Made by a program: the position numbers and the translations under genes
Assembly: GCA_036390755.1 (NCBI GenBank)
Contig: DASWBH010000389.1
Location: forward strand, 7,269 to 71,268
DNA length: 64,000 bases
Reading direction: 5' to 3'
From: Thermoanaerobaculia bacterium
GTDB taxonomy: Bacteria; Acidobacteriota; Thermoanaerobaculia; Gp7-AA8
Part shown: one piece after another, positions 35,957 through 38,206 of the stretch
Position numbering within the stretch: position 1 is the first letter of the stretch
Layout: every line of letters begins with the position of its first letter
Notes under the pieces: model-generated
Told to the model about the DNA's origin: nothing
Seen by the model: only the letters and a program-made list of their open reading frames with translations
The model's database searches: none

Positions 35957-38206
35957 TCAGATCCGCGTCAGCTTCGCGTATTTCGCGATGAACTTCTTCG
36001 ATCCCACGCGCTCGAAGTAGACGGTCAGCTTCGCGTCCGGGCCGGAGCCTTCCATCGTCAGGATCGTTCCCTCGCCGAACTGTTCGTGGCGGACGCGCAC
36101 GCCGCGCTTGAGCTCCGCGCGTGGCGCATCGCTCTTCGCGGGCCGGATCGCCGAGGGATCGAACTGGATCGGCGAATTCTTGAAAAATGAGGCGACATTC
36201 TGCACGCCCTCACCCGGCGCTTCGCGCCACCCTCTCCCGCGCGCGGGAGAGGGAGGACTGAGCGGCTTTTCTCGCCAGTGCGGCGCCTGACGGAAGCCGA
36301 GGCGAACTTCTTCGCGGACCTCTTCCGGGATCTCGGCGAGGAACGGCGACGGACTCTGTTCGCGAAACCTGCCGTGCAGACGTCGCTCCAGCGAGTGGAG
36401 GCAGTACAGCTGCTCGCGAGCCCGCGTCATGCCGACGTAGCAGAGGCGGCGCTCCTCCTCGAGATCTTCGTTGTGCTCCTGCGACTGCGAATGCGGCAGG
36501 ATGCCTTCCTCCATCCCTGCGAGGAACACGACTTTGAACTCGAGTCCCTTCGCCGCGTGCAAAGTCATGAGCGTCACGCCTTTCGCGGATTCGTAACGAT
36601 CGAGATCCGACATCAGCGTCAGCGAGTCGAGGTAATCGGCGAGCGTCGCCGACGGATTCGCCTCCCAGAACTCCCGCGCGGAGTTCAGAAGCTCGTCGAT
36701 GTTCTGCAGGCGCGATTCGTCCTGAATGTCGCGCGACTCCGACAACATCCGTCGATAGCCGGTGCGCAGCAGAAGGTAGTCGTAGAGATCGGGAATCGGA
36801 TTCGACGCGGCGCGCTGCAGGTCGTGGACGATCTCGCGGAACTCGCGCACTGCCTTCGACGCGCGGGCCGGCAGGAAGCCGAGATCGCCTTCGATGATCG
36901 CCCAGAGCGACACGTTCTGCTCGGTCGCCTTCTCCGTCAGTGCGGCCACCGTCGTGTCGCCGATTCCGCGCGACGGGACGTTGATGACGCGCTCGATCGA
37001 CGGCGTGTCGTGCGGACGCACGGCCAGGCGCAGATACGACAGTACGTCCTTGATCTCGGCGCGCTCGTAGAACTTCACGCCGCCGACGACCGAGTATGGC
37101 ATGTCGGCGCGCAGCAGCTCTTCTTCAAACGGCCGGGACTGGGCGTTCGTCCGGAACAGCACGGCGAAGTCGGAGAGCTTGTACTCCGATCGCATCGACG
37201 TCATCTTCTCGATGACGAACTGCGCCTCTTCGCGATCGTTGCTGCAGGTCACGACGCGGATCGGATCGCCGCTGCCGGAATCAGTGAAGAGCCGCTTTCC
37301 TTTTCGAGCGATGTTGTTCGACACGACGCCGGTCGCCGCGTCGAGGATGTTGCCTGTCGAGCGGTAGTTCTGCTCGAGCTTGATGATCCGCGCGCCCGGA
37401 AAGTCGCGCTCGAAGTTGAGAATGTTGTTGATGTCGGCTCCGCGGAAGCGGTAGATCGACTGATCCTCGTCGCCGACGGCCACAATGTTGCCCTCTTTTC
37501 CGCTTAGTAATTTAATCAGTACATACTGCGCACGATTCGTATCTTGATATTCGTCGACTAAAACGTGCCGGAATCTGTCGTGCACCTCGTTGCGCACGTC
37601 TTCGTGCTTCTCGAGCAGCTCGACGTACTTCCCGATCAGGTCGTCGAAGTCCATCGCGTCGTACTCGCGTAGCCGCTTCTGATACAGGCGGTAGACTTCC
37701 GAAACGCGCGCGCCGAAGAAGTCGAGGTTCGTCTTCTCGTACTCGGCCGCCCCGATCAGCTCGTTCTTCGCGTTCGAGATCCGCGTCAGCACCGAGCGCG
37801 GCGGGAACGCTTCGTCGTTCATGTTCAGCTCGCGCATCGAGCGGCGCACGAGCGTCATCTGATCCGCTGTGTCGTAGACGGCGAACGACTTCGTGAAGCC
37901 GAGCCGGTCGGCAAAGCGACGGAGCATCCGCAGCGACGTCGAGTGAAACGTGCCGATCCACGGACGGCCTCCGATGTTCGGGACGAGGTGTTCGACGCGG
38001 CTGAGCATCTCGTTTGCCGCCTTGTTCGTGAACGTGACGGCCAGGATCCGGTTCGGATGGACACGCCTCTCACCGATCAGCCAGGCGATCCGGTACGTGA
38101 TCACGCGGGTCTTGCCCGACCCGGCGCCCGCCAGCACGAGAAGCGGCCCGCTGCCGTGCGTAACCGCTTCCCGCTGCTGTTGATTGAGGCCGGAGAGGTC
38201 GATCAT
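35957..38206 (-). CDS. pcrA: ATP-dependent DNA helicase PcrA/UvrD, with an in-frame family-2 repeat insertion near the C-terminus
   Basis: ..LLVLAGAGSGKTRVITYRIAWLI.. (Walker A), DEYQDTN, the full SF1 helicase core and a C-terminal Tudor-like tail. The insert ..EKPLSPPSPARGRGWREAPGEGVQN.. is encoded by the repeat at 36207-36265. Confidence 0.92.
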   Translation of the reverse strand: MIDLSGLNQQQREAVTHGSGPLLVLAGAGSGKTRVITYRIAWLIGERRVHPNRILAVTFTNKAANEMLSRVEHLVPNIGGRPWIGTFHSTSLRMLRRFADRLGFTKSFAVYDTADQMTLVRRSMRELNMNDEAFPPRSVLTRISNAKNELIGAAEYEKTNLDFFGARVSEVYRLYQKRLREYDAMDFDDLIGKYVELLEKHEDVRNEVHDRFRHVLVDEYQDTNRAQYVLIKLLSGKEGNIVAVGDEDQSIYRFRGADINNILNFERDFPGARIIKLEQNYRSTGNILDAATGVVSNNIARKGKRLFTDSGSGDPIRVVTCSNDREEAQFVIEKMTSMRSEYKLSDFAVLFRTNAQSRPFEEELLRADMPYSVVGGVKFYERAEIKDVLSYLRLAVRPHDTPSIERVINVPSRGIGDTTVAALTEKATEQNVSLWAIIEGDLGFLPARASKAVREFREIVHDLQRAASNPIPDLYDYLLLRTGYRRMLSESRDIQDESRLQNIDELLNSAREFWEANPSATLADYLDSLTLMSDLDRYESAKGVTLMTLHAAKGLEFKVVFLAGMEEGILPHSQSQEHNEDLEEERRLCYVGMTRAREQLYCLHSLERRLHGRFREQSPSPFLAEIPEEVREEVRLGFRQAPHWREKPLSPPSPARGRGWREAPGEGVQNVASFFKNSPIQFDPSAIRPAKSDAPRAELKRGVRVRHEQFGEGTILTMEGSGPDAKLTVYFERVGSKKFIAKYAKLTRI
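36207..36265. repeat. Short repeat with internal palindrome (about 59 bp), family 2 copy A, in-frame inside pcrA
   Basis: ccctcacccggcgcttcgcgccaCCCTCTCCCGCGCGCGGGAGAGGGaggactgagcgg. It is the reverse complement of the copy at 43145-43198, at about 90 percent identity. Confidence 0.75.

Follow-up and report, generated by a model that had tools for sequence, protein, structure and literature searches.

A BoxC/PIT/TMECO-type repeat with a hairpin loop, read in frame in pcrA and ispA of a Thermoanaerobaculia bacterium

Two essential genes of a Thermoanaerobaculia bacterium (Acidobacteriota), pcrA/uvrD and ispA, each carry one copy of a 57-nt repeat that is read in frame as part of the protein. 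Both genes lie on the 64-kb stretch of DNA analysed here (contig DASWBH010000389.1 of assembly GCA_036390755.1, positions 7,269 to 71,268 of the forward strand), which is referred to below as the window and to which all coordinates without a locus name belong. Comparison of its blocks with published repeats places the element among the BoxC/PIT/TMECO repeats, which are G/C-rich and potentially form intrastrand triplexes, as a variant whose second loop is a 14-nt hairpin. We consider it probable that a dispersed, homogenised repeat of this triplex family landed in tolerant parts of the two genes, where it is read through as filler. The kind of element is already known; what is new is the hairpin form of loop 2, the host outside the Proteobacteria and the translated location in linker hot spots.

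The repeat unit and its place among triplex-type repeats

In a repeat search of the window, the longest inverted pair consisted of a 57-nt unit at 36204-36260 in pcrA (copy 1, minus strand) and another at 43145-43201 in ispA (copy 2, plus strand), which match in reverse complement at 54 of 57 bases (95%). The G-rich strand, corresponding to the strand of a class II purine-motif triplex, is the coding strand of pcrA and the template strand of ispA. A first-pass annotation of the window had described a palindromic element at 36207-36265 near the C-terminus of PcrA, with a second, inverted copy in frame in ispA. The second copy was found as described, and the extent was about right, the unit shared by the two copies being 36204-36260; the conserved core of copy 1 spans 36207-36253 (47 nt). 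The palindrome CCCTCTCCCGCG/CGCGGGAGAGGG is indeed perfect at 36230-36253, where it makes up a Watson-Crick hairpin with a 10-bp stem, composed of CCCTCTCCC (36230-36238), the loop GCGCGC (36239-36244) and GGGAGAGGG (36245-36253), that is, blocks 1 and 2 of the element. Its description as a simple palindrome, however, had overlooked two further parts, the mini-hairpin GGCGCttcGCGCC and the third block CCCTCACCC (36207-36215), which with the palindrome make the element a three-block motif of the triplex type. Block 3 reads GGGTGAGGG on the minus strand and is the putative reverse-Hoogsteen third strand. Loop 2 (36216-36229) consists of the mini-hairpin GGCGC-TTC-GCGCC (36216-36228) plus an A, and on the G-rich strand these 14 nt read T-GGCGC-GAA-GCGCC (TGGCGCGAAGCGCC) and are self-complementary. 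On the same strand the order of the parts is CCCTCTCCC, loop 1, GGGAGAGGG, loop 2 and GGGTGAGGG, loop 1 being 6 nt long in both copies (GCGCGC and GCGTAC, each followed by GGGAGAGGG), while block 3 of copy 2 contains one mismatch (GAGTGAGGG). Dinucleotide-preserving shuffles of the window yielded 0 matches to the pattern, compared to the two real copies.

The secondary structure predicted by ViennaRNA, whose model does not cover triplexes, comprised two hairpins and an outer helix, the latter being closed by the flanks together with the third block. A hairpin in loop 2 would keep the ends of the loop adjacent, a geometry compatible with the third block folding back. Formation of a G-quadruplex from four G3 tracts was considered and set aside because a complementary C-block is present on the same strand. 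No Rfam family was matched, either at gathering thresholds on the whole window or at permissive E-values around the element.

BoxC/PIT elements of E. coli and other Proteobacteria have reportedly been described by Bachellier et al. and, in 2000 and 2002, by Hoyne and Maher. The BoxC repeat of E. coli was rediscovered by Hoyne and Maher as PIT and renamed TMECO by Holder et al. (PMC4666352), with 3610 occurrences in 262 proteobacterial genomes and the pattern CCCTCNCCC N3-6 GGGNGAGGG N3 GGGNGAGGG. In the pcrA copy, each of the 27 block bases agrees with that of E. coli TMECO no. 1, CCCTCTCCC TGT GGGAGAGGG CCG GGGTGAGGG C (Table 1 of Holder et al. 2015, PMC4666352). The C-rich 9-nt block CCCTCNCCC is present in both window copies as CCCTCTCCC, on the minus strand at 36245-36253 and on the plus strand at 43152-43160; in both it is followed by a loop 1 within the 3-6 nt range and the complementary purine block GGGNGAGGG, and the second G-rich block GGGNGAGGG, for which one mismatch is allowed, is represented by GGGTGAGGG in copy 1 and GAGTGAGGG in copy 2. 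The element shares with BoxC/PIT/TMECO the same three 9-nt blocks in the same order, and it is likewise dispersed and multicopy, occurs as singles and as inverted pairs, lies in locally variable DNA and has no known associated transposase. It differs from them in loop 2, which is of 3 nt (TTA or CCG types) in the published repeats but a 14-nt mini-hairpin in the window and up to ~40 nt elsewhere, and the published TMECO search, which allowed loops of 1-6 nt, would miss this form. It also differs in its acidobacterial host and in its location, since all 23 TMECO copies of E. coli MG1655 are intergenic (PMC4666352) whereas both window copies lie inside open reading frames (ORFs) and are translated. 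In the literature searched, we found no earlier report of BoxC/TMECO-type repeats inside genes. Single-stranded TMECO DNA forms a class II purine-motif triplex in vitro, as demonstrated by circular dichroism and nuclear magnetic resonance for the E. coli form with 3-nt loops, and the triplex was not detected in vivo (PMC4666352).

Both host genes are intact and on the minus strand. The pcrA/uvrD gene (35957-38206) encodes 749 amino acids with the Pfam domains UvrD-helicase (7-270), UvrD_C (275-602) and PcrA_UvrD_tudor (702-745), and ispA (42770-43690), for farnesyl-diphosphate synthase, encodes 306 amino acids with a polyprenyl_synt domain. PcrA is 83-89% identical to its orthologues, with all domains present, and IspA is 75-81% identical to its own; given their full length and this identity, neither gene is a pseudogene. 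A unit of 57 nt is equal to 19 codons, and a stop codon occurs in only one of its six frames, which would explain its persistence: the unit would yield no more than a filler peptide, rich in Pro, Gly, Arg and Ser and without a function of its own. In PcrA, copy 1 is translated as (L)SPPSPARGRGWREAPGEG(V), residues ~649-668, within the context ...WREKPLSPPSPARGRGWREAPGEGVQNVASFFKN..., exactly as the first-pass annotation had given it; its placement between the helicase core and the Tudor-like tail agrees with the Pfam borders at 602 and 702. In IspA, copy 2 is read from the minus strand as TPSLGASRHPLPYAGEGGL (residues 164-182), within the context ...DLEETPSLGASRHPLPYAGEGGLRRVRFIH.... Because the genes lie on the same strand while the copies are in opposite orientation relative to them, the peptides in PcrA and IspA are unrelated, which indicates that the conserved unit is DNA and not protein. 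The best homologues of both proteins come from metagenome-assembled genomes (MAGs) of Thermoanaerobaculia (Acidobacteriota), and an identical IspA (P0121) is encoded on a 96.8-kb contig of a Thermoanaerobaculia MAG at NCBI. The gene order xseA-xseB-ispA-dxs-tlyA ... tatA-pcrA-TPR protein is kept in five related contigs (L121-L125).

As a side observation, a host motif of PcrA, WREQP/WREKP (TGGCGAGAAAAGCCG in the window, TGGCGCGAGCAGCCG in relatives), resembles the WREAP encoded by the element (TGGCGCGAAGCGCCG). On the minus strand, the two occupy 36275-36289 and 36217-36231, respectively, with WREAP 16 codons downstream (W644 and W660), and the TGGCGCGAGCAGCCG of the relatives agrees with the WREAP DNA at 12 of 15 bases. 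This likeness may be due to chance or to microhomology.

Conservation and distribution of the element

In L121, L122 and L125, pcrA likewise contains the element, with place and frame identical to those in the window. Over 47 positions, these copies show 1, 1 and 5 differences from the window copy, whereas at four-fold degenerate sites the genes themselves diverge by 48-49% (binomial P for the element, 1e-8 to 1e-13), and the same contrast was obtained with the ispA copies of L140-L142, with four-fold sites differing by 44-52%. With 1-5 differences in 47 positions against 44-52% at four-fold sites, the element must be either renewed or constrained at the DNA level. Within the element, third codon positions scarcely vary, whereas synonymous sites beyond it are saturated, and selection on the peptide is therefore no explanation for the conservation.

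The bases flanking the core point to the first of these two options. Three flanking bases on one side and seven on the other (AGGACTG, 36254-36260 in copy 1) are common to both window copies but are not shared with copies that occupy the equivalent position in other genomes, and the AGGACTG tail is also found on five unrelated metagenome copies. Element-free orthologues have CAGGCCT at the pcrA site, which resembles AGGACTG, and we considered AGGACTG to be host sequence; this was dropped, and the tail was assigned to a subfamily of the element, because the five unrelated copies carry it. Among the matches listed in the search described below, tails and loops are uniform within a MAG and different between MAGs. 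Taken together, the tails shared within the window, the recurrence of AGGACTG and the MAG-specific tails argue for genome-specific homogenisation, whether through gene conversion or because a local master copy is re-inserted.

To describe the occurrence of the element elsewhere, one genome per species was scanned with a pattern for part of the element, GCGCCACCCTCTCCCN{4,8}GGGAGAGGG, i.e. GCGCCACCCTCTCCC-N4-8-GGGAGAGGG, which returned at least 120 loci. The matches listed bear labels of Alpha-, Beta- and Gammaproteobacteria, including cultured Bradyrhizobium, Azospirillum, Devosia and Rhodopseudomonas, as well as of Acidobacteriota, Bacteroidota, Chloroflexia, Planctomycetota, Verrucomicrobiae, Myxococcota, Methylomirabilota and a Peribacteria MAG. 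Among these matches, the block CCCTCACCC, which is absent from the search pattern and has a small hairpin between it and the searched part, was present upstream in nearly all of the 126 copies (93 of 113 parsed copies), and its presence in almost every match identifies the unit as three 9-nt blocks. A loop 2 of 14 nt was the commonest form among the matches listed (54/113 parsed copies), and where the loop-2 stem was longer, up to 10 bp and of differing sequence, the complementary partner was always present. One case of compensatory change in loop 2 was found, in Azospirillum strains (GGCGC/GCGCC versus GGCCC/GGGCC), and some of the Bradyrhizobium variants contain CGTC within loop 2. At an orthologous intergenic Azospirillum locus, the hairpin form and a short form with a TA/TAA loop alternate between strains, in both members at once; on this comparison of sequences, the hairpin-loop and short-loop forms are interchangeable variants.

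Most copies elsewhere are intergenic, as estimated by a rough test of ORFs and third-position GC content, and some lie just upstream of start codons. Copies inside genes were nevertheless found outside the window: two within the valyl-tRNA synthetase (ValRS) gene of L012, one within the RefSeq-annotated mfd of Xanthomonas sacchari, and one in the linker between the carboxyltransferase subdomains of urea carboxylase, both in L064 and in the RefSeq-annotated uca of Azospirillum sp. B510.

Several further arrangements were observed. In Azospirillum, a composite repeat of ~150 nt, consisting of two inverted triplex-type elements and a spacer, occupies 20-35 places per replicon (L129, which is Azospirillum argentinense p2, and L131-L134). 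In L138, a tandem array follows a short-form element at ~2440-2560, with units ending in GGGAGAGGGAGGACTGC or GGAAGAGGGAGGACTGC, and the AGGACTG-tailed subfamily is therefore able to form arrays. Among viral contigs of IMG/VR (L143-L151 and L152-L231), the canonical form CCCTCTCCC-N3-6-GGGAGAGGG-NNN-GGGTGAGGG was found in at least 120 and the hairpin-loop variant in nine; the element may spread horizontally by this route, or the matches may lie in host DNA flanking prophages.

Length variation at the two insertion sites

AlphaFold models of IspA and PcrA were built with orthologue alignments, and at both sites the insert is predicted to lie in a coil with a predicted local distance difference test (pLDDT) score below 50. 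In the IspA model (mean pLDDT 82), the coil spans residues 149-178, with pLDDT <50 at 152-175. In the PcrA model, residues 637-697, which connect the helicase core to a confidently modelled Tudor domain, form a coil with pLDDT <50, and this linker is predicted to be disordered. Precisely where the IspA loop lies, solved farnesyl- and geranylgeranyl-diphosphate (FPP/GGPP) synthases have 10-11 fewer residues.

The comparison with orthologues, of which ~120 were aligned per protein, showed that the two segments containing the inserts are the sole hypervariable parts of these proteins. The PcrA stretch between the conserved EIP and SFF motifs ranges from 22 to 82 amino acids and the IspA loop from 10 to 48, with basal forms such as EATGKKPTREALE or EGGAGLDALQ. 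The idea that the DNA repeat merely encodes a conserved peptide, which would be expected to recur in repeat-free orthologues, found no backing: no equivalent peptide is conserved in them, segment lengths vary, and the shortest orthologues (IspA with EGGAGLDALQ, and PcrA of 734-743 amino acids) lack the segment altogether. Peptide signatures of the triplex type occur in these segments in 11/119 PcrA and 6/119 IspA orthologues, and nowhere else in either protein. They represent at least four combinations of orientation and frame, namely PSPxxGRGWRxAPGEG, xxRHPLPxxGEG, PLPxxxGEGxVRG and PLSRxxGEGGRRPGEG. Other repeat families occupy the same IspA loop, between GGQVADL and FIHRNKT, in further orthologues (P0123, P0130, P0133, P0135, P0156, P0160 and P0166), with VIPSREDGEES or GGSPPLSESGGKPPQSK and with a tandem unit, PRPTGESALRE, in one, two or three copies. 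Judged by these alignments, the IspA loop is a site of repeated, independent length change.

A model of simple insertion was rejected for ispA because the loops of close orthologues are of similar length; the IspA loop of L123 is ~64% similar to the element (by eye), and the short basal loop is seen only in more distant orthologues. Both sites are recurrent hot spots in which copies have probably been renewed or replaced, and not the result of a simple one-off insertion. The simplest reading of the distribution would be that insertions are widespread but are lost except where a loop can accommodate additional flexible residues; alternatively, the PcrA and IspA sites may be targeted.

Other repeats were noted at the same two sites. 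In three ispA orthologues (L140 at 2341-3330, L141 at 3001-4017 and L142 at 2634-3614), the loop contains an inverted pair of the triplex type, the right member of which agrees with the window copy in type, position and frame, the left member being the variant CCTTCTCCCC...GGGGAGAAGG...GGATGAGGGG. In PcrA, the element-free linkers of close relatives (P0004, P0005, P0008, P0009, P0011 and P0012) share IRPRASGLGPR / IRPQAPGLRPQ, one example being L124 10001-12244, and in the DNA of L124 the unit TCAGGCCTCAA is duplicated. Segments of the IRPRASGLGPR type are possibly another short repeat family in the PcrA linker.

Competing explanations and significance

In the mechanism that we propose, the element would act as a dispersed, genome-specific and homogenised repeat, two copies of whose AGGACTG-tailed subfamily would have landed in, or overwritten older copies in, pcrA and ispA. 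The landing sites would be the only parts of these genes that tolerate extra residues, namely the linker between the core and the Tudor domain in PcrA and the surface loop of IspA that precedes the helix bearing FIHxxKTG. Copies would then be kept near the consensus by repeated replacement from other genomic copies, through gene conversion or re-insertion, and not by selection on the peptide, and the non-B DNA structure may contribute to the local indel instability of both linkers.

Genome-specific homogenisation is the preferred explanation of the strong conservation, and selection on each copy for a role at the DNA level is its main rival. According to this rival, which we judge unlikely, each copy is a functional non-B DNA element under purifying selection, for instance a site of replication or transcription pausing, a hot spot of recombination or repair, or a generator of linker-length diversity, and the pcrA and ispA copies are old orthologous insertions. 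The 1-5 differences in 47 positions would be accounted for in this way, as would a block sequence that is unchanged across phyla, and Holder et al. (PMC4666352) associate TMECO with locally unstable DNA, which is in line with the hypervariable length of the linkers. However, the window copies share their tails with each other rather than with the copies at the same position elsewhere, and many close orthologues are without the element. Orientation relative to the gene also differs between the window copies and so has no constant bearing on transcription or replication; neither a terminator-like nor a promoter-like site overlaps the element, and PIT elements had no promoter or terminator activity and no in vivo effect in E. 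coli, in the work as it is cited in PMC4666352. Selection on the protein instead of the DNA, with a PcrA linker motif or an IspA loop motif as the selected feature and the repetition of the DNA as secondary, is very improbable: the peptide PSPARGRGWREAPGEG does occur at the same PcrA place in four genomes, but the same DNA yields an unrelated peptide in IspA, third codon positions in the element hardly change, and most copies of the family are intergenic while most orthologues are without the peptide. That the inserts are an artefact of assembly or binning, a concern since the source is a MAG, has next to no likelihood, as independent assemblies from JGI, NCBI and ENA agree on where the element sits in pcrA and ispA, annotated genes in the complete genomes of cultured Xanthomonas and Azospirillum contain it, and the reading frames are intact.

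It is also rather doubtful that the element is an ordinary repetitive extragenic palindromic (REP) sequence or REPIN, or a MITE (miniature inverted-repeat transposable element), mobilised in trans by a RAYT-type tyrosine or insertion sequence (IS) transposase, with triplex-like blocks that are incidental. Such repeats are, like ours, short, GC-rich, hairpin-forming and dispersed in many copies; inverted pairs resembling REPINs occur in the ispA genes of L140-L142 and in the Azospirillum composite, and a few versions of the element are fully palindromic (L008, L024 and L088). In-frame intragenic REPs are documented as well: according to Di Nocera et al. 2013 (PMC3733652), REPs tagged with GTAG or CGTC are GC-rich palindromes of 20-40 nt that encode 20-30 amino acids inside ORFs and are enriched in genes of replication and repair (UvrD/Rep helicase, uvrA/B, recB and mfd-like genes) and of tRNA synthetases. 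The window element, in contrast, has three blocks and no known link to a RAYT transposase, and neither 57-nt copy contains a GTAG or CGTC tag or its complement. The MITEs Correia/NEMIS, ERIC, Coxiella QMITE and Nezha are comparable as structured, non-autonomous repeats with occasional in-frame read-through, but MITEs are 70-300 bp long with terminal inverted repeats and target-site duplications, whereas no terminal inverted repeats were visible at the window copies and no direct repeat flanks either of them. Furthermore, no transposase or integrase lies near the E. coli copies (Holder et al., PMC4666352), and REP families are normally lineage-specific, whereas the blocks described here are the same from E. 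coli to Acidobacteriota.

The first-pass annotation had likened the inserts to the Rickettsia palindromic elements (RPEs), the classic example of in-frame repeats, and as an analogy this is apt: a hairpin-forming repeat is read in frame in unrelated, often essential genes, with open frames and at sites compatible with the protein's fold and function. The two differ in that RPEs are ~100-150 bp long, AT-rich, restricted to Rickettsia and, read in a single orientation, code for a conserved peptide (Ogata et al. 2000, summarised in PMC10969869), whereas the window unit is 57 nt long and is read in several frames and both orientations. No sequence relation between the window element and RPEs was seen, and the Rfam search was no specific test of RPE homology.

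Several observations weigh against the landing and homogenisation of a dispersed repeat. The strong conservation could reflect selection on each copy for a function at the DNA level. No transposase, target-site duplication or polymorphism between empty and filled sites was found, with no search of the window for RAYT made, and mobility is therefore deduced from distribution only; the Azospirillum strains, which were compared at one locus, were filled in 5/5 cases and differed only in having a long or a short loop 2, and no filled and empty sites were near enough to each other to define the ends of the element. A neighbour-joining tree of PcrA, of low resolution, places the carriers in two positions and does not distinguish independent insertion of the pcrA copies from their common descent. 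The phylum names of many MAG loci are database labels only, the PcrA model is poor overall (mean pLDDT 65.5), and the triplex is documented for a 3-nt-loop form in vitro. A more far-reaching and rather speculative reading is that the triplex-type motif is an ancient, cross-phylum and transposase-independent replicator whose non-B DNA structure lets it copy itself or be copied, for example when a stalled fork switches template or in the course of gene conversion associated with repair. If this were true, the genic copies would be actively maintained and would drive the hypervariable linker length in PcrA, IspA, Mfd, ValRS and urea carboxylase.

A further repeat in the window is likewise read in frame. 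A different palindromic repeat of ~105 nt at 4119-4223 (GTCATTCTGAGCGC...GAAGAATCTGGG / CCCGGATTCTTC...GCTCAGGATGAC) lies in frame in an ORF on the plus strand (3852-5177) with DUF4147 and MOFRL domains (glycerate-kinase family), where it is translated as VILSAEEREESGRGQASHHPDSSPSSRLRMT, immediately in front of the conserved GGHPxxD. This repeat recurs between genes at 30220-30313, and the 3' end of this second copy, CTCAGAATGAC, may contribute the ATG of the gene that follows. In total, the 64-kb window contains three in-frame repeat insertions.

The BoxC/PIT/TMECO repeats have been known since the 1990s, with no function or mode of spread established. Genic copies provide an internal clock for them, in that synonymous sites gauge neutral change, compared with which change in the element is lower by a factor of at least ten, and this makes measurable the question of whether such repeats are maintained or merely left over. 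For annotation, the element accounts for odd P/G/R-rich segments (PSPxxGRG...GEG, HPLPxxGEG) in otherwise conserved proteins. Overall, the family is extended to a hairpin-loop form that was invisible to earlier searches, to Acidobacteriota and probably other phyla, and to protein-coding DNA, where it supplies ready-made flexible linker peptides.

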